Translations under genes and position numbers: made by a program
Source of the DNA: Escherichia coli
GTDB lineage: Bacteria > Pseudomonadota > Gammaproteobacteria > Enterobacterales > Enterobacteriaceae
Direction: 5' to 3' (one strand)
DNA length: 64,000 bases
NCBI RefSeq assembly: GCF_024502345.1
Contig: NZ_JALDNN010000001.1
The notes under the pieces: model-generated
Seen by the model: the letters and a program-made list of their open reading frames with translations, nothing else
Told to the model about the DNA's origin: nothing
Database searches by the model: none
Shown here: positions 2,114 through 53,694 of the stretch, in pieces
How the letters are laid out: each line of letters opens with the position of its first letter
Position numbering within the stretch: position 1 is the stretch's first letter

Positions 2114-2808
2114 TGCAGATCCTCAAAGTGATCGGCCTGTTGATGGAGTATCCGGACGAGCTGTTGTGGGAATGCAAGGAGGACGCGCTGGCGTTGATCC
2201 GCCGCGACGCGCCGATGCTTACGGATTTCACCCACAACCTGCTTAACGCGCCGCTGCTGGATAAACAGGCCGAATGGTGCGAAGTGTTTGACCGTGGACG
2301 TACCACATCGCTGCTGCTGTTCGAACATGTTCATGCCGAGTCCCGCGATCGCGGCCAGGCAATGGTGGACCTGCTGGCGGAGTATGAAAAGGTCGGCCTG
2401 CAGCTGGATTGTCGGGAACTGCCCGATTATCTACCGCTGTATCTGGAGTATTTAAGCGTACTGCCTGACGATCAGGCGAAAGAAGGATTGCTCAATGTTG
2501 CGCCGATCCTCGCCCTGCTTGGCGGTCGCTTAAAACAACGCGAGGCACCGTGGTACGCGTTGTTTGATGCTCTGCTGCAACTGGCGGGAAGTACACTTTC
2601 AAGTGACAGTGTCACAAAACAAGTAAACAGCGAAGAGCGCGATGACACCCGCCAGGCGCTTGATGCAGTGTGGGAAGAGGAACAGGTGAAGTTTATTGAA
2701 GATAACGCCACGGCGTGTGACAGCTCGCCGCTTAATCAATATCAGCGACGCTTTAGCCAGGATGTCGCGCCGCAATATGTCGACATCAGTGCGGGAGGTG
2801 GGAAATGA
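2113..2808 (+). CDS. narW: Nitrate reductase 2 assembly chaperone (delta)
   Basis: 231-aa ORF start overlapping narY stop; operon position. Confidence 0.9.
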
Positions 2809-3485
2809 TTCAGTATCTGAACGTCTTTTTTTACGATATCTACCCGTACATTTGTGCGACGGTGTTTTTCCTCGGCAGCTGGCTGCGCTACGACTACGGG
2901 CAGTACACCTGGCGCGCCTCCTCAAGTCAAATGCTCGATAAACGCGGGATGGTGATATGGTCGAATCTGTTCCATATCGGCATTTTGGGGATTTTCTTCG
3001 GGCACTTGTTCGGCATGTTAACGCCGCACTGGATGTACGCGTGGTTTTTGCCAGTGGCAGCGAAACAACTCATGGCGATGGTGCTCGGCGGTATTTGCGG
3101 TGTGTTGACGTTGATTGGCGGCGCAGGACTGCTGTGGCGCAGGCTGACAAATCAGCGCGTGCGTGCCACTTCCACTACGCCGGATATCATCATCATGAGC
3201 ATTTTGCTGATCCAGTGTCTGTTGGGGCTAAGTACCATACCGTTTTCAGCACAGTATCCTGATGGTAGCGAAATGATGAAGCTGGTGGGTTGGGCGCAAA
3301 GCATTGTCACTTTCCGTGGTGGATCGTCAGAGATGCTTAACGGTGTAGCGTTCGTTTTCCGCTTGCATCTGGTGTTGGGAATGACCATCTTCCTGCTCTT
3401 CCCGTTCACCCGACTGGTGCATGTGTGGAGCGCGCCGTTTGAGTACTTCACCCGCCGGTATCAGATTGTGCGCTCGCGGCGATAA
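2805..3485 (+). CDS. narV: Respiratory nitrate reductase 2 gamma subunit (cytochrome b)
   Basis: 226-aa hydrophobic ORF, 4-bp overlap with narW; operon position. Confidence 0.9.
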
Positions 3486-3563
3486 TTTTCACCCTGGCCG
3501 GATAGCCCTTCGCTCTCCGGCCACTTGCAGGCTATGATAGTTCTCCAGCCCAGGAGAACGTTA

Positions 3564-4053
3564 ATGAAACCGCAGGTTTACCACGTCGATGCTTTTACCT
3601 CTCAACCATTTCGCGGCAATTCTGCCGGTGTTGTTTTCCCCGCCGATAATCTTAGCGAAGCGCAAATGCAGCTTATCGCCCGCGAATTAGGTCATTCGGA
3701 AACCACTTTTCTGCTGCACAGCGACGACAGCGATGTGCGCATCCGCTACTTTACGCCAACCGTTGAAGTTCCGATTTGTGGTCACGCGACAGTAGCTGCA
3801 CACTATGTACGTGCGAAGGTGTTAGGTTTAGGAAATTGCACGGTCTGGCAAACATCGCTGGCAGGAAAACATCGCGTGACTATCGAAAAGCACCACGATG
3901 GTTATCGTATTTCGCTGGAACAAGGTACGCCGGGCTTTGAGCCACCGCTGGAAGGTGAAACACGTGCGGCGATTATCAACGCGCTTCATCTCACTGAGGA
4001 CGATATTCTGCCAGGCTTGCCAATTCAGGTGGCAACAACAGGACACTCAAAAG
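3564..4053 (+). pseudogene. yddE: PhzF-family isomerase YddE, 3'-truncated by IS903-family element (about 163 codons retained; the recalled full length is 297 aa)
   Basis: ATG at 3564 (MKPQVYHVDAFTS...); reading frame runs straight into the IS left inverted repeat at 4054 and stops a few codons inside it. Confidence 0.7.
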
Positions 4054-5110
4054 GGCTTTGTTGAATAAATCGAACTTTTGCTGAGTTGAAGGATCAGATC
4101 ACGTATCTTCCCGACAACGCAGACCGTTCCGTGGCAAAGCAAAAGTTCAAAATCACCAACTGGCCCACCTACAATAAAGCCCTCATCAACCGTGGCTCCA
4201 TAACTTTCTGGCTGGATGATGAAGCTATTCAGGCCTGGTATGAGTCAGCAACACCTTCTTCACGAGGCAGACCTCAGCGCTATTCTGACCTTGCCATCAC
4301 GACTGTGCTGGTCATTAAACGCGTATTCAGGCTGACCCTGCGCGCTGCGCAGGGCTTTATTGATTCCATTTTTTCTCTGATGAACGTTCCGCTACGCTGC
4401 CCGGATTACAGCTGTGTCAGCAGGCGGGCAAAGTCGGTTAATGTCAGTTTCAAAACGCCCACCCGGGGTGAAATCGCACACCTGGTAATTGATTCCACCG
4501 GGCTGAAGGTCTTCGGTGAAGGCGAGTGGAAAGTCAAAAAGCATGGCCAGGAACGCCGCCGTATCTGGCGTAAGCTGCATCTCGCCGTTGACAGTAAAAC
4601 ACATGAAATCATCTGCGCTGACCTGTCGCTGAACAACGTTACGGACTCAGAGGCCTTCCCCGGGTTAATCCGGCAAACCCACCGGAAAATCAGGTCAGCC
4701 GCCGCCGATGGCGCTTACGATACCCGGCTATGTCACGATGAACTGCGGCGTAAGAAAATCAGCGCGCTTATCCCTCCCCGAAAAGGTGCGGGTTACTGGC
4801 CCGGTGAATATGCAGACCGTAACCGTGCAGTGGCTAATCAGCGAATGACCGGGAGTAATGCGCGGTGGAAATGGACAACAGATTACAACCGTCGCTCGAT
4901 AGCGGAAACGGCGATGTACCGGGTAAAACAGCTGTTCGGGGGTTCACTGACACTGCGTGACTACGATGGTCAGGTTGCAGAGGCTATGGCCCTGGTACGA
5001 GCGCTGAACAAAATGACGAAAGCAGGTATGCCTGAAAGCGTGCGTATTGCCTGAAAACACAACCCGCTACGGGGGAGACTTACCCGAAATCTGATTTATT
5101 CAACAAAGCC
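4054..5110 (+). mobile_element. IS903-family (IS5 superfamily) insertion sequence, 1057 bp, copy 1
   Basis: 18-bp terminal inverted repeats GGCTTTGTTGAATAAATC at both ends; 1057-bp length matches IS903; identical second copy at 52638..53694; no 9-bp target-site duplication. Confidence 0.85.
4131..5054 (+). CDS. IS903-family DDE transposase (307 aa from GTG; the ORF track extends to 4086)
   Basis: ORF fills the IS; IS5-family transposase-like sequence (…NWPTYNKALINRGSITFWLDDEAIQAWY…); GTG start inferred from the 307-aa IS903 transposase length. Confidence 0.8.
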   Translation: MAKQKFKITNWPTYNKALINRGSITFWLDDEAIQAWYESATPSSRGRPQRYSDLAITTVLVIKRVFRLTLRAAQGFIDSIFSLMNVPLRCPDYSCVSRRAKSVNVSFKTPTRGEIAHLVIDSTGLKVFGEGEWKVKKHGQERRRIWRKLHLAVDSKTHEIICADLSLNNVTDSEAFPGLIRQTHRKIRSAAADGAYDTRLCHDELRRKKISALIPPRKGAGYWPGEYADRNRAVANQRMTGSNARWKWTTDYNRRSIAETAMYRVKQLFGGSLTLRDYDGQVAEAMALVRALNKMTKAGMPESVRIA

Positions 5111-5483
5111 TATGCAAGGAGTATTTGATCATGTATAAGCAATAAAAACAGCTTCAGGAAATAAGGAATATCGCAATTTTTAAACATAAAATGCGAATCG
5201 TTCAATACAAAAAAGCAGCGTTGCGTAATCTTTCCCTGATTAAATACGCTACTGCCCTACCCTGATGACATGATCTGCACTGCACTATCATATAGACATG
5301 TTTCTCAACATGCGAAAAGATGTTTTATTTTCGGATTATATTAAATTGATATTTCATATAAAAAATGAAATTACATCAATCATATAAATAATTGTACCAA
5401 CTTTAATTACTATTCATAGCAAACAAATGGATATCCAGTTAACTACGCCAGTGATTCATTAACATTAACCTCCGGCATTATTG

Positions 5484-6101
5484 TTAAATAATGACATTCC
5501 TTTTTAATACTTCTTGTAATTTCGGTAACTGACATACAGCATCAGCAATCGCACTGATATTCGTGGCATTATCCTGAAACCATTCATGCCCAGGCCCCCA
5601 TGTACGCATAGTGCAAAGATAACAGTCCACCAGCGTTAGTTGCTCACCAAACGCATAAGGTTCAGCAGTGAGCTGCGAATTCAGCCAGATATAAAGCGAT
5701 TTTCGATATTCAATAACATTCTTCTTTAACTGTTCAGGTGCGTCAGGAGCCCAACGCTCAGGGTAATCGGCGAAAGTGAATGTTGGATAGATATTAGCAA
5801 CCAGCCAGACCAATAGCCGTTGAAACTGCTGGCGTTCGGTGCGCCCAACCGGTGGCGCAAGGTCCGGGCGACGATCGAGAACCATCAATGCAATCGCCGC
5901 TGTCTCCGTCATAATCTCGTCATTTTCCAATGCCAGTGTCGGAACCTGACACAACGGGTTCAGGGTTTTCAATAACTCGCGTGAAGCTCCCTCGTGGTCA
6001 AAACCACTGACATCAACGAACTGATAAGGAATATCAGCCAGTGTTAGCATCAGCTCACTGATTGTAGAGCCCCATCCGGGTACGCCATACACCTTAATCA
6101 T
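5484..6101 (-). CDS. yncG: Glutathione S-transferase homolog
   Basis: 205-aa ORF with GST-like N-terminus; position next to ansP. Confidence 0.8.
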   Translation of the reverse strand: MIKVYGVPGWGSTISELMLTLADIPYQFVDVSGFDHEGASRELLKTLNPLCQVPTLALENDEIMTETAAIALMVLDRRPDLAPPVGRTERQQFQRLLVWLVANIYPTFTFADYPERWAPDAPEQLKKNVIEYRKSLYIWLNSQLTAEPYAFGEQLTLVDCYLCTMRTWGPGHEWFQDNATNISAIADAVCQLPKLQEVLKRNVII

Positions 6102-6367
6102 ATGCCCCTCACAATCTTTTAAAGATTAAGTGTAGGACAGTACACAGGTTAACCAGCAAAAGGATTTGTCATTTTTTCGTCAGTTGTATTATTCCCCTTC
6201 AGGATTGTAAGGGGATGTTTTGCATCGTTTATCGATAACGGGTAGGATGCTGCGCCGATAGTTTTATACCCATAAAGAATAATGGTGATAACTATCATCG
6301 CCAGGATGAATAAACATTGTTCATGGCAACTTATATGACTTTTTCATTAAAGCAATCAGGGAGAGCA

Positions 6368-7867
6368 ATGAGTAAACACGACACCGACACTTCAGATCAA
6401 CACGCCGCGAAACGCCGCTGGCTTAATGCCCACGAAGAGGGGTATCACAAAGCGATGGGCAATCGCCAGGTACAGATGATCGCCATTGGCGGCGCGATTG
6501 GCACCGGCTTGTTTTTAGGTGCAGGAGCCCGACTGCAAATGGCGGGGCCAGCACTGGCACTGGTCTATTTGATCTGCGGCCTGTTTTCATTTTTTATTCT
6601 GCGTGCATTGGGTGAGCTGGTGTTACACCGCCCTTCCAGTGGCAGTTTTGTCTCTTATGCCCGTGAGTTTTTGGGTGAGAAAGCCGCTTACGTTGCTGGC
6701 TGGATGTACTTCATCAACTGGGCGATGACAGGGATTGTCGATATCACCGCTGTAGCGCTGTATATGCATTACTGGGGTGCGTTTGGCGGCGTGCCGCAGT
6801 GGGTCTTTGCGCTCACTGCGCTGACCATCGTTGGCACCATGAATATGATCGGTGTGAAATGGTTTGCGGAGATGGAGTTCTGGTTTGCGCTTATTAAAGT
6901 GCTCGCCATTGTGACCTTTTTGGTCGTGGGTACAGTGTTCCTCGGTAGTGGTCAGCCGCTGGATGGCAACACGACTGGCTTTCATTTAATTACCGATAAC
7001 GGCGGCTTCTTCCCCCACGGTTTGCTGCCTGCTCTGGTATTGATTCAGGGCGTAGTGTTTGCTTTTGCCTCCATTGAAATGGTGGGTACAGCTGCCGGAG
7101 AATGTAAAGATCCGCAGACCATGGTGCCTAAAGCGATTAACAGTGTGATTTGGCGTATTGGCCTGTTTTACGTCGGCTCCGTGGTGTTGCTGGTTATGTT
7201 ATTGCCGTGGAGCGCGTATCAGGCGGGGCAAAGTCCGTTCGTGACGTTTTTCTCTAAACTGGGTGTGCCATATATCGGCAGCATTATGAACATTGTGGTG
7301 CTGACCGCTGCCCTCTCCAGCCTGAATTCAGGTCTGTACTGCACCGGACGTATTCTGCGCTCAATGGCGATGGGCGGTTCCGCACCGAGTTTTATGGCGA
7401 AAATGAGTCGTCAGCATGTGCCGTATGCCGGGATTCTGGCGACACTGGTTGTGTATGTCGTCGGCGTATTCCTCAACTATCTGGTGCCGTCGCGCGTATT
7501 TGAGATTGTGTTGAACTTCGCGTCGCTGGGAATCATCGCTTCATGGGCGTTTATCATCGTGTGCCAGATGCGCCTGCGTAAAGCGATTAAAGAAGGCAAA
7601 GCAGCGGATGTCAGTTTTAAACTGCCTGGCGCGCCCTTCACTTCCTGGCTGACATTACTGTTTTTACTGAGTGTCCTTGTGCTGATGGCGTTCGATTACC
7701 CGAACGGGACTTATACTATCGCGGCGCTGCCGATTATCGGTATTCTGCTGGTTATAGGCTGGTTTGGTGTGCGCAAACGCGTTGCTGAAATTCACAGCAC
7801 TGCGCCAGTCGTCGAGGAAGATGAAGAAAAACAGGAAATTGTGTTTAAGCCTGAAACGGCGAGCTAA
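6368..7867 (+). CDS. ansP: L-asparagine permease (APC family)
   Basis: Multi-pass membrane permease ORF; ATG at 6368 (MSKHDTDTSDQ...) gives 499 aa. Confidence 0.9.
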   Translation: MSKHDTDTSDQHAAKRRWLNAHEEGYHKAMGNRQVQMIAIGGAIGTGLFLGAGARLQMAGPALALVYLICGLFSFFILRALGELVLHRPSSGSFVSYAREFLGEKAAYVAGWMYFINWAMTGIVDITAVALYMHYWGAFGGVPQWVFALTALTIVGTMNMIGVKWFAEMEFWFALIKVLAIVTFLVVGTVFLGSGQPLDGNTTGFHLITDNGGFFPHGLLPALVLIQGVVFAFASIEMVGTAAGECKDPQTMVPKAINSVIWRIGLFYVGSVVLLVMLLPWSAYQAGQSPFVTFFSKLGVPYIGSIMNIVVLTAALSSLNSGLYCTGRILRSMAMGGSAPSFMAKMSRQHVPYAGILATLVVYVVGVFLNYLVPSRVFEIVLNFASLGIIASWAFIIVCQMRLRKAIKEGKAADVSFKLPGAPFTSWLTLLFLLSVLVLMAFDYPNGTYTIAALPIIGILLVIGWFGVRKRVAEIHSTAPVVEEDEEKQEIVFKPETAS

Positions 7868-7875
7868 TTGCAAAA

Positions 7876-7905
7876 TTGCCCGGCTACGTGCCGGGCAAAT
7901 TTAGA
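7876..7905 (+). terminator. Rho-independent terminator after ansP
   Basis: 9-bp stem TTGCCCGGC/GCCGGGCAA with 5-nt loop immediately after ansP stop, followed by a short T-rich tract. Confidence 0.5.
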
Positions 7906-15306: not shown

Positions 15307-15650
15307 CAAGATCTTCTCATACTCTCCAGGTTTACAACATTATCCTTAATATTTACTTCTTTTTGCTGGCATCTACATTGAAATGAGTAGAAAACATCCC
15401 CCTACTGTCGTCTATACAAACAGCTTACTGATTCAAAGGGAATCTTGTTTTCACATTTTTCTATCATGAATACTTTATACGCGCGGGAGTCTATAAATGC
15501 TTTATACTTTCAAGGAATAACGCAAATATAAAAAGATGGCGTAAAGTATATGCATGGCAGGATGTTTGCAACCTCCTTCATGACGCTGCCCCATTGAAAT
15601 TGCAAACCCCGCCCTGGTTATCTTGCCCATTTATCATGCAAAACAGATAA

Positions 15651-16460
15651 TTATAGGCCTCTGAATACCTCAGAAAGATTGAATTTTTTATAGTCCCTCT
15701 CTTGAATATTTCCATTTGAAATCAATCGATTCATCTCTTCAACAAAATAATTTATATCATCACACTTGTTATTATCCGGAAGATCTGAGTAGTTATAATT
15801 CCACCATTTTATTCTCAACAGTTCATCAATAACATTTGAATCAAACCTAAATCTGATTATTTTTGCAGGAACTCCTGCAACTATGGCATATGGGGGCACA
15901 TCTTTGGTAACAACGGAATTGGCAGCAATAACAGCACCATCACCTATTGTGATGCCACCTTTCAATACAACATCATTTCCTATCCAGACATCATTTCCTA
16001 TAATCGGATTTTCAGGTTTTGTAATGAATGGTTTCAATGTCCAGCTACGTTCAAACTCACTCATAGCAAACTTATCAAATTCACCGTTATAAGTCATCAT
16101 GTGAGTAGTAAAACGATTCAAAGAATGATTTCCACCCATTATTTTTACATTTGATGCAATACTACAAAATCGACCTATACGTATATTCCCTGAAAAATGA
16201 CAGGTCGGAAATGAAAAAGCGCCGACACTGGAGAAATTTTTTACAGGCATTGTTGAATATTCTTCAGCAATAACATTATCTTCAATTGTTATCTTGTCAC
16301 CTTTTGAGAAAAGAAATAAATTCCTTTCTTTATACGACTTCTTCCCCTTATGATTTAAAAAGATTTTATTATCCATACAAAACTCAAAGTGTTTTTTCGT
16401 CCATCTGAAGGTAAGGGGTTTATTTTTATCTTCCGTGAATTTGTACAATTGAACTTTCAT
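15651..16460 (-). CDS. Hexapeptide-repeat (left-handed beta-helix) acetyltransferase, Vat/CatB-like xenobiotic acetyltransferase family, with N- and C-terminal extensions
   Basis: 269-aa ORF; motif …IIGNDVWIGNDVVLKGGITIGDGAVIAANSVVTKDVPPYAIVAGVPAKIIRFRF… typical of streptogramin/chloramphenicol acetyltransferases; gene and flanks are markedly AT-rich relative to neighbours. Confidence 0.75.
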   Translation of the reverse strand: MKVQLYKFTEDKNKPLTFRWTKKHFEFCMDNKIFLNHKGKKSYKERNLFLFSKGDKITIEDNVIAEEYSTMPVKNFSSVGAFSFPTCHFSGNIRIGRFCSIASNVKIMGGNHSLNRFTTHMMTYNGEFDKFAMSEFERSWTLKPFITKPENPIIGNDVWIGNDVVLKGGITIGDGAVIAANSVVTKDVPPYAIVAGVPAKIIRFRFDSNVIDELLRIKWWNYNYSDLPDNNKCDDINYFVEEMNRLISNGNIQERDYKKFNLSEVFRGL

Positions 16461-16669
16461 TGTTAATACTTCTACTTATAAAGTATTAGTTTAATAACGA
16501 TACTCTAAAGCCTTATGCTAATCAACTGTGACAGGATGAAAAATCGCCATCAAACATTTAGCCTAATTTTTACGCTAGTTATTAATGTAATCATTCTAAT
16601 ACTTAACCGCCATTAAACTCAGAACCGAAAACGATAGTGGCCGTCCTATAACAGCCACTAACATCTAAC

Positions 16670-18094
16670 TTAATGTTTAACCATGACGTGGCGGACGACG
16701 GTGTAATCCTCCAGCCCATAAAGTGACATATCCTTGCCGTAACCAGAAAGTTTCTGCCCACCGTGCGGCATTTCACTTACCAGCATGAAATGGGTATTGA
16801 CCCAGGTACAACCATATTGCAGTCGTGCGCTGACGCGATGCGCCCTGCCCACATCTTTCGTCCATACCGAAGATGCAAGTCCGTACTGGCTGTCATTCGC
16901 CCAGTTCACCACCTGTTCTTCGTTGTCGAAGAGCGTAACACTCACTACTGGACCAAATACCTCTTTTTGCACGATGGCATCGTCCTGTAATGCGCCAGCC
17001 AGCAGCGTCGGCTCATAGTAATAGCCATTACCCTTGCGCTTTTCACCGCCAGTGATCACTTTGATGTGCCCTGTCGCTTTCGCCTCTTCTACTGCCTTGC
17101 TGACGCGTTCGAGATGCGCCAGCGAGCTTAAAGGTCCAAGCTCCGTAGACTCGTCATCCGGCGCACCAGATTTTAACGTTGCCACTGCAGCACCGAGTTT
17201 TTCCACCAACGTATCGTAAATGCCTTTTTGCGCGTAGATCCGACAAGCCGCAGTACAATCCTGTCCGGCATTGTAATAGCCAAATGTACGTACACCTTCG
17301 ACCACTGCTTCAATATCCGCATCATCAAAAACAATCACTGGCGCTTTGCCACCAAGTTCCATATGAGTTCGCTTAATGGACGGCGCGGTATGGCTGATGA
17401 TGTGCTCGCCGGTGGCGATAGAGCCCGTCAGCGACACCATCCGCACTTTGGGATGACCGGTCAGCGGATCGCCCACCGTTTTGCCTCTGCCAAACAGCAC
17501 ATTAATCACGCCTGCCGGGAAGATATCTTTCGCCAGCCCTGCCAACTTCAACGCGGTCAGCGGGGTAATTTCTGATGGTTTAAGCACTACGCAGTTCCCT
17601 GCCGCCAGCGCCGGAGCAAGTTTCCACGCTGCCATCATCAGCGGATAATTCCACGGTGCGATAGAAGCCACGACCCCCAACGGATCGCGACGGATCATCG
17701 AAGTATGACCTTCAAGATATTCACCTGCCGCCAGACCATTCAGACAGCGCGCCGCACCCGCGAAAAAGCGAAAAACATCGACAATCGCCGGGATTTCATC
17801 ATTGAACGCACTATGCAGCGGTTTGCCACAATTACGGGACTCCAGTTCGGCAAAAACCTGACCATTTTCTTCGATTACATCAGCCAGTTTCAGCAGACAT
17901 TCCGCACGCACTTTCGGCGTGGTTTGCCCCCATTCGGCAAATGCTGCATCTGCCGCGCGCACAGCAGCATCGACCTGCTCTGCGGATGCCTCGGCAATCT
18001 CCAGTAAAACGTCCCCCGTTGCCGGACTATAGACAGGCTGTTTTTCCCCTTCGCCGCTAACCAGTTCTCCGTTAATCAGTAACTTATGTTGCAT
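16670..18094 (-). CDS. patD: Gamma-aminobutyraldehyde dehydrogenase
   Basis: 474-aa aldehyde dehydrogenase ORF; conserved position. Confidence 0.9.
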
Positions 18095-52637: not shown

Positions 52638-53694
52638 GGCTTTGTTGAATAAATCGAACTTTTGCTGAGTTGAAGGATCAGATCACGTATCTTCCCGACA
52701 ACGCAGACCGTTCCGTGGCAAAGCAAAAGTTCAAAATCACCAACTGGCCCACCTACAATAAAGCCCTCATCAACCGTGGCTCCATAACTTTCTGGCTGGA
52801 TGATGAAGCTATTCAGGCCTGGTATGAGTCAGCAACACCTTCTTCACGAGGCAGACCTCAGCGCTATTCTGACCTTGCCATCACGACTGTGCTGGTCATT
52901 AAACGCGTATTCAGGCTGACCCTGCGCGCTGCGCAGGGCTTTATTGATTCCATTTTTTCTCTGATGAACGTTCCGCTACGCTGCCCGGATTACAGCTGTG
53001 TCAGCAGGCGGGCAAAGTCGGTTAATGTCAGTTTCAAAACGCCCACCCGGGGTGAAATCGCACACCTGGTAATTGATTCCACCGGGCTGAAGGTCTTCGG
53101 TGAAGGCGAGTGGAAAGTCAAAAAGCATGGCCAGGAACGCCGCCGTATCTGGCGTAAGCTGCATCTCGCCGTTGACAGTAAAACACATGAAATCATCTGC
53201 GCTGACCTGTCGCTGAACAACGTTACGGACTCAGAGGCCTTCCCCGGGTTAATCCGGCAAACCCACCGGAAAATCAGGTCAGCCGCCGCCGATGGCGCTT
53301 ACGATACCCGGCTATGTCACGATGAACTGCGGCGTAAGAAAATCAGCGCGCTTATCCCTCCCCGAAAAGGTGCGGGTTACTGGCCCGGTGAATATGCAGA
53401 CCGTAACCGTGCAGTGGCTAATCAGCGAATGACCGGGAGTAATGCGCGGTGGAAATGGACAACAGATTACAACCGTCGCTCGATAGCGGAAACGGCGATG
53501 TACCGGGTAAAACAGCTGTTCGGGGGTTCACTGACACTGCGTGACTACGATGGTCAGGTTGCAGAGGCTATGGCCCTGGTACGAGCGCTGAACAAAATGA
53601 CGAAAGCAGGTATGCCTGAAAGCGTGCGTATTGCCTGAAAACACAACCCGCTACGGGGGAGACTTACCCGAAATCTGATTTATTCAACAAAGCC
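52638..53694 (+). mobile_element. IS903-family insertion sequence, 1057 bp, copy 2 (identical to copy 1, same orientation)
   Basis: Same 18-bp terminal inverted repeats; the encoded ORFs are identical to copy 1; no target-site duplication. Confidence 0.85.
52715..53638 (+). CDS. IS903-family DDE transposase
   Basis: Identical to the transposase ORF at 4131..5054. Confidence 0.8.
   Translation: MAKQKFKITNWPTYNKALINRGSITFWLDDEAIQAWYESATPSSRGRPQRYSDLAITTVLVIKRVFRLTLRAAQGFIDSIFSLMNVPLRCPDYSCVSRRAKSVNVSFKTPTRGEIAHLVIDSTGLKVFGEGEWKVKKHGQERRRIWRKLHLAVDSKTHEIICADLSLNNVTDSEAFPGLIRQTHRKIRSAAADGAYDTRLCHDELRRKKISALIPPRKGAGYWPGEYADRNRAVANQRMTGSNARWKWTTDYNRRSIAETAMYRVKQLFGGSLTLRDYDGQVAEAMALVRALNKMTKAGMPESVRIA

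Follow-up and report, generated by a model that had tools for sequence, protein, structure and literature searches.

Layout and composition of the yddE-yncG region

The 64,000-nt stretch of Escherichia coli DNA analysed here (the window) carries, in this order, narV, a yddE fragment, a copy of IS903B, an interval at 5111-5483, yncG, ansP and yncE. The bounds of the interval are exact, with the end of IS903B at 5110 and the yncG stop codon at 5484-5486. yncG (5484-6101, minus strand), a gene of the glutathione S-transferase family that forms the right border, is intact; it was recognized as a 205-aa ORF and through the yncG annotation in relatives, and its product differs from K-12 YncG at 4 residues.

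The first-pass annotation had described the interval as an AT-rich stretch between the IS element and yncG, devoid of ORFs of 60 aa or more, and both observations hold at its exact coordinates. Its GC content is 31% (0.311 over 373 bp) versus 0.50 across the whole window, and 0.46% of the 373-bp windows in the stretch have a GC content as low. In a 300-bp profile, GC drops to 0.31 at 5111-5483, compared with about 0.50-0.58 in the flanking genes. No ORF of at least 60 aa was detected on either strand; the longest one overlapping the interval has 31 aa, and the longest lying wholly inside it 29 aa. This lack of ORFs is uninformative, since 92% of shuffles of the same 373 bases are likewise free of ORFs of at least 60 aa. 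Only the base composition of the interval is unusual, and the lack of ORFs is what such a composition predicts. The interval is made of three unrelated pieces: an H-repeat stub, a 37-bp anchor, and a 203-bp allele-specific spacer.

The window contains one other strongly low-GC stretch, at 15491-16700 (GC ≤ 0.34). It includes an ORF of 269 aa (15651-16460, minus strand) for a hexapeptide-repeat acetyltransferase that resembles the Vat/CatB xenobiotic acetyltransferases (E about 1e-37) while staying under every curated cut-off. This ORF lies between yncL/ortT and patD, and strain JX21CE8 has only about 100 bp at that place, which argues that 15491-16700 is probably a small acquired insert.

The left third is the truncated end of an H-repeat

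The 128 bp that follow IS903B (5111-5238, minus strand) are the 5'-terminal remnant, inverted repeat and leader, of an ISAs1-family element of the H-repeat/ISEc1 type, as defined by dispersed-repeat matches and by comparison of termini. This segment matches 24,108 places in 5,336 of the 5,426 complete E. coli genomes searched, with a median of 5 per genome and identities of 80-99%. Four copies were inspected, in a K-12 derivative (ybfD/rhsC locus), XL10-Gold, E. coli B, and strain S9. In each of them the repeat lies immediately next to the start of a transposase gene or pseudogene of the ISAs1 family, which reads on the minus strand. When the ends of the elements were compared, the window sequence ...GCGTAATCTTTCCCTG, ending at 5238, proved to be the outer terminus of the left inverted repeat. 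ISEc1 copies end with ...GTGATCTTTCCCTG, and their opposite end reads CAGGGCAAGATTACG; the ...TTTCCCTG terminus of the stub matches the ISEc1 left end, the ISEc1 right end being the inverted match CAGGGCAAGAT. The stub thus carries the outer terminus characteristic of the ISAs1 family (CAGGG.../...CCCTG) within a terminal inverted repeat.

From this terminus, ...TTTCCCTG up to 5238, the stub extends through the leader and stops 15 nt short of the transposase start codon. Nothing is left at 5111-5238 of the ribosome-binding site, of the ATG, or of the transposase gene of about 378 aa expected between ISAs1-family ends. The stub is only 128 bp long because IS903B has joined it 15 nt upstream of the transposase ATG, and the segment is therefore a remnant, not an element. 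In strain A30 and the other intact relatives the stub measures 155 bp. The A30 copy has 26 bp more than that of the window, ribosome-binding site and ATG among them, and reaches 8 nt further into the transposase gene. In strain AF60, a full-length, more divergent ISAs1 element stands beside the same spacer, followed by an RHS core protein.

H-repeats (H-rpt) are IS-like sequences associated with Rhs loci, and b1455-b1461 is among the listed Rhs-variable regions of E. coli (PMC3032704). The stub fits this description: it shares 85-93% identity with ISEc1-type copies over their left end and leader, ends at the same terminus, and likewise sits at an Rhs locus, the rhsE/Rhs-variable site b1455-b1461. 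It differs from these elements in that 128 bp are left of an element of ~1.3 kb, an extent judged from the two compared termini, and in that its inner break is the IS903B junction and no natural end. The first-pass annotation had placed the interval properly, beside a deletion, while the ISAs1-family end that makes up one third of it went unrecognised.

A short anchor is common to both alleles of the locus

The ISAs1 terminus is followed by the 5 bp ATTAA (5239-5243), which are defined by alignment and missing in AF60 and K-12, and then by a single-copy segment of 37 bp (5244-5280), hereafter the anchor. The anchor is found in common with the K-12-type yncH-rhsE spacer (91.9% identity by blastn to 3078-3114 of the MG1655 locus, and pattern search), where its counterpart lies 425 bp beyond yncH. 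It is the sole part of the interval that is homologous between yncH-bearing and yncH-less alleles. That the anchor might be a degenerate ISAs1 end was considered and rejected, as a comparison by eye found the CCCTG terminus to be the sole match.

Three junctions between an ISAs1 end and the anchor region occur within about 40 bp, namely CCCTG|ATTAA|ATACGC in the window and in A30, CCCTG|ATACGC in AF60, and CCCTG|ATATCTTAATCTGCAC in S9. The IS terminus of S9 (about 4125-4160 of the locus) coincides with a CCCTG inside the K-12 anchor. These varied junctions near the anchor suggest an insertion or recombination hotspot, or a target preference.

The spacer and yncH are alternative alleles

Directly after the yncG stop codon, positions 5281-5483 form a spacer of 203 bp with 26% GC. 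It is present in 850 of 5,426 complete E. coli genomes (~16%), each time as a single copy, at 88-98.5% identity, and bears no annotation in any of them. In K-12 MG1655 the map reads ansP, yncG, yncH, rhsE', ydcD, yncI, ydcC (the H-repeat transposase), pptA, yddH, nhoA, yddE, and narV. The order yncG, yncH, rhsE confirms that the interval occupies the place of K-12 yncH, as the first-pass annotation had proposed: in K-12-type genomes, ~713 bp including yncH separate the yncG stop codon from the anchor, and the spacer stands there instead.

That annotation had further suggested that the interval may be a degraded yncH remnant, to be checked by alignment with the K-12 yncG-yncH region. This suggestion found no support. 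With a word size of 7, blastn of the interval against the K-12 yncH region returned only the 37-bp anchor, which lies outside yncH. A tblastn search with YncH gave a best E value of 0.4 in the interval, and nhmmer with a profile of four yncH-type alleles, all filters off, reported nothing there at E ≤ 1000. K-12 YncH matches the Pfam family PF17520 (DUF5445) at 7e-41, while the interval's six small ORFs do not match it. In situ decay of a K-12-type yncH by point mutations and minor deletions would account for the position downstream of yncG, and a weak, roughly collinear Smith-Waterman alignment does pair 5309-5409 with the first ~86 nt of K-12 yncH and 12 nt upstream of it (z = 2.5); tblastn puts YncH residues 2-31 at the same place (23% identity, E = 0.93). 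However, the alignment score of 18 does not exceed what shuffled sequences reach (mean 13.2, maximum 21), and a distant blastn of the spacer across the 5,426 genomes recovered the 850 genomes with the same allele only, with no yncH-type genome and no intermediate.

The borders of the spacer also speak against decay. yncG of the window shares 98.7% identity with K-12 yncG and 97.4-98.2% with its counterparts in A30 and JX21CE8, which carry the spacer; the gene is therefore close to either type, and homology between the alleles breaks exactly at its stop codon. Homology ends sharply at two places, the yncG stop codon and the anchor; this is the pattern of allele replacement, not of decay, and we regard in situ decay of yncH as so improbable as to be nearly negligible. 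By sequence comparison, the spacer and the yncH-bearing DNA are alternative alleles at the edge of the island, with no detectable homology. They have in common their place right after the yncG stop codon, their AT-richness (in K-12, the 1,026 bp between yncG and rhsE have 35% GC), and the 37-bp anchor; by contrast, the window has no homology to the K-12 region beyond the anchor, no ORF, and 203 bp in place of ~713 bp.

When one genome per species was searched with an exact 22-mer of the spacer, the single match was a metagenome-assembled genome labelled Citrobacter sp. (DXKH01000108.1). Its positions 1-1150 and 7602-7905 hold a B2-like E. coli yncG together with the spacer, 92% identical to that of the window, and about 6.4 kb of extra DNA lies between yncG and ansP. 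The contig is probably Escherichia DNA under a wrong label, or a contaminant, that carries an insertion, and, as its DNA looks like that of phylogroup-B2 E. coli, it is uninformative on the origin of the spacer. Literature hits for yncH were nearly all hospital acronyms with no relation to the gene.

Intact relatives place the interval at the edge of an Rhs/type VI secretion island

The whole of 5111-5483 aligns end to end, at 98.7% identity, with the gap between yncG and a PAAR gene in strain A30. The same 373 bp are found in A30, JX21CE8, ATCC 25922, and SF-088 (92-98.7% identical), where they form the right-hand part of a yncG-PAAR gap of ~540 bp. Beyond the gap, these four strains carry a PAAR gene, then vgrG, then various effector genes, all on the minus strand, and in JX21CE8 the map continues with IS1, an ISAs1 remnant, pptA, yddH, nhoA, and yddE. 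Spacer, anchor, and H-repeat stub follow one another in the gap upstream of these orphan PAAR-vgrG-effector modules as they do in the window. Where that arrangement continues with a final 26 bp of stub, another ~140 bp, and the complete module, the window has IS903B instead. In ATCC 25922, SF-088, and AF60 the annotation treats yncG as a pseudogene, with a frameshift or an internal stop; the window has an intact yncG. From these comparisons we are highly confident that the interval is a non-coding leftover at the edge of a variable Rhs/type VI secretion island located between yncG and pptA.

IS903B marks a probable deletion of about 9 kb

The left neighbour of the interval is a complete IS903B of the IS5 family (4054-5110, plus strand; 1057 bp), with a transposase ORF at 4086-5054 and perfect 18-bp inverted repeats at 4054-4071 and 5093-5110. 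The copy annotated as IS903B in strain MSB1_9D matches it at 99.9% identity. On the other side of the element in the window, the first 490 of the 894 nt of yddE (3564-4053, plus strand) run as an open frame into the IS; this 5' fragment, collinear with strain 21EVA, forms the left edge of a deletion. Collinearity covers 2700-4053 of the window and 4619-5972 of 21EVA, whose yddE spans 5483-6376.

No 9-bp target-site duplication accompanies the IS903B at 4054-5110, as its flanks, ACTCAAAAG and TATGCAAGG, differ. This IS is therefore not a simple insertion, and its state points to deletion or recombination. Since a complete IS903B without target-site duplication joins the interval to a truncated yddE, an IS-associated deletion of ~9 kb is implied; relative to the map of JX21CE8, the window misses about 9.0 kb. 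That the interval borders a deletion, another proposal of the first-pass annotation, is thus borne out by the missing duplication and by the cut in yddE. The lost DNA would comprise the 3' part of yddE, nhoA, yddH, and pptA and, by comparison with relatives, the PAAR-vgrG-effector module. None of the 5,426 complete E. coli genomes covers at least 80% of window 3400-6400, so that the joined yddE-IS903B-yncG arrangement is found in none, and an exact 30-mer of the right junction had no match in metagenome contigs. Because the junction is missing from both collections, the event looks strain-specific.

Deletions adjacent to the element are common for IS903 and are a usual reason for finding an IS without target-site duplication (PMC11708052). 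The window shows what such adjacent deletions by IS903/IS903B produce, namely a complete IS, no 9-bp duplication, flanks in native map order, and ~9 kb missing; the pattern fits recombination between former copies equally well, and no intermediate genome was found. We infer that the ancestor would have been a yncH-less strain of the A30/JX21CE8 type, in which the stub was followed by the PAAR-vgrG-effector module, IS remnants, pptA, yddH, nhoA, and yddE. The deletion attributed to IS903B would then have run from within the H-repeat stub to mid-yddE and, for an ancestor like JX21CE8, have taken out about 9 kb. An adjacent deletion through intramolecular replicative transposition could have done this, as could recombination between two IS903B copies in direct orientation; the data fit both options alike, and the order of events and their mechanism are proposed by deduction from the arrangement. 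The nearest complete genome for ansP-pqqU is 21EVA, a carrier of the yncH allele. Since the nearest complete genomes are only 98-99.3% identical nearby and 21EVA has this other allele, the island content of the ancestor and the 9-kb figure are extrapolated.

A second IS903B of the window, with 100% identity to the first, lies at 52638-53694. It too lacks a target-site duplication, as ACGAGATGT and GAGTGATGC, the 9 bp on its two sides, differ; both flanks lie in ynbC, of which about 1.3 kb is missing compared with strain 2013C-3264. This second copy supports real IS-driven erosion. A misassembly, in which yddE and the yncG flank would have been joined through a collapsed IS903B repeat, could also leave two identical copies both devoid of target-site duplication, and a junction absent from all 5,426 complete genomes and from the metagenome contigs. 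Yet each copy joins sequences that are native neighbours in their original orientation (yddE and yncG for the first, the two halves of ynbC for the second), as real deletions do and random misjoins do not, and swapping the flanks between the copies restores no target-site duplication. The collinear flanks also speak against a misjoin through IS903B copies located beyond the window. We consider such an artefact very unlikely indeed.

IS903-type copies are also found at this locus in two other strains. M15 has an IS5-family copy of 93% identity at 4001-5057 of its locus, 9 bp from the anchor, and MSB1_9D a 99.9%-identical IS903B, also at 4001-5057, that abuts a truncated ISEc1 transposase. They look like independent arrivals at the same AT-rich, yncG-proximal target.

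Taken together, the interval is, in our judgement with high probability, an H-repeat end, a 37-bp anchor, and an island-edge spacer left behind by an IS903B deletion of about 9 kb.

Possible small gene or control region in the spacer

The spacer is a single-copy sequence conserved at 88-98.5% in its 850 genomes, as an unannotated small RNA, small protein, or toxin gene might be. A 29-aa ORF (5298-5387, plus strand) is open in 5 of 6 alleles, and the plus strand folds slightly better than shuffled sequences (z = -2.3). However, minus-strand folds reach z = -1.4 to -1.5, and the folding of both strands is unremarkable. The 29-aa ORF at 5298-5387 lacks a Shine-Dalgarno sequence; its ATG is missing in AF60, and its changes in SF-088 are mostly non-synonymous. 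PGAP annotates nothing at the interval in any listed genome. The Rfam 15 covariance models gave no match in 5111-5483 at E ≤ 10, and the interval contains no intrinsic terminator: after yncG there were 0 terminator-like sites, and the hairpin past the stop codon lacks a U tract. A Pfam scan of the six small ORFs returned only a sub-threshold zinc ribbon (E = 0.038), in a 29-aa ORF at 5202-5291 on the minus strand. A small gene in the spacer is accordingly very unlikely.

A control region, the other suggestion of the first-pass annotation, was also considered: the spacer and the H-repeat leader could be an H-NS-silenced regulatory sequence of the auxiliary type VI secretion operon PAAR-vgrG, orphaned by the deletion. 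AT-rich acquired DNA is preferentially coated by H-NS, and the AT content here is well above the genome average, with 31% GC overall and 26% in 5290-5483 versus 50% for the window; in A30, JX21CE8, SF-088, and ATCC 25922, the sequence accounts for the greater part of the ~540 bp that separate yncG from PAAR-vgrG genes transcribed in the same direction. The first-pass annotation had proposed to look for short ORFs and promoters. The short ORFs, of up to 31 aa, have no meaningful Pfam match, and 4 promoter-like sites were counted versus 2.3 +/- 1.5 in shuffles, not clearly above chance; one of them, a sigma-70-like site matching 10 of 12 positions (TTTATA-16-TATAAT, minus strand, 5362 to 5335), is kept in 6 of 6 aligned alleles and points toward the former PAAR-vgrG operon.

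The high-affinity nucleation motif of H-NS resembles TCGATAAATT. A search of the interval with this consensus gave 0 matches within 2 mismatches, and shuffles gave 1.07 +/- 1.06, which counts against the control region. So does the divergence of the spacer, which is like that of yncG; since yncG is a pseudogene in ATCC 25922, SF-088, and AF60, this divergence argues for no extra constraint on the spacer, whose identity pattern looks mosaic, as from recombination. Moreover, the PAAR-vgrG operon is deleted in this strain, so that any control role of the interval is vestigial. We therefore hold an orphaned control region to be unlikely, though of some weight. The spacer and the anchor invariably lie between yncG and an H-repeat stub ahead of orphan PAAR-vgrG-effector modules. 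The proposal that they form a dedicated PAAR-vgrG control region, for instance an H-NS-silenced promoter using the old IS leader, or else encode an unannotated small RNA or peptide, appears distinctly improbable; if true, an orphan control region or a small gene would survive here after the loss of its operon.

Going by composition, coating of the interval by H-NS is plausible, and the well-conserved spacer (92-98.5%), with its predicted promoter-like site at 5362 to 5335, may have a regulatory role in the intact relatives. In the strain analysed here, the leftover of the island edge probably has no active role and would serve at most as a passive 3' flank of yncG.

Significance

Every part of the interval is of a known type: a stub of H-repeat/ISAs1, the border of an Rhs/type VI secretion island, and a deletion associated with IS903B. 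Beyond annotation its importance is small, and the proper label is an ISAs1/H-repeat remnant with an Rhs/type VI secretion island edge, not a yncH pseudogene. The locus also shows at least two unrelated alleles, yncH being one, at the yncG-proximal edge of the island. For the strain, the adjoining IS903B marks a specific loss of about 9 kb and, with two IS903B-linked deletions in 64 kb, IS903B is actively eroding the genome.
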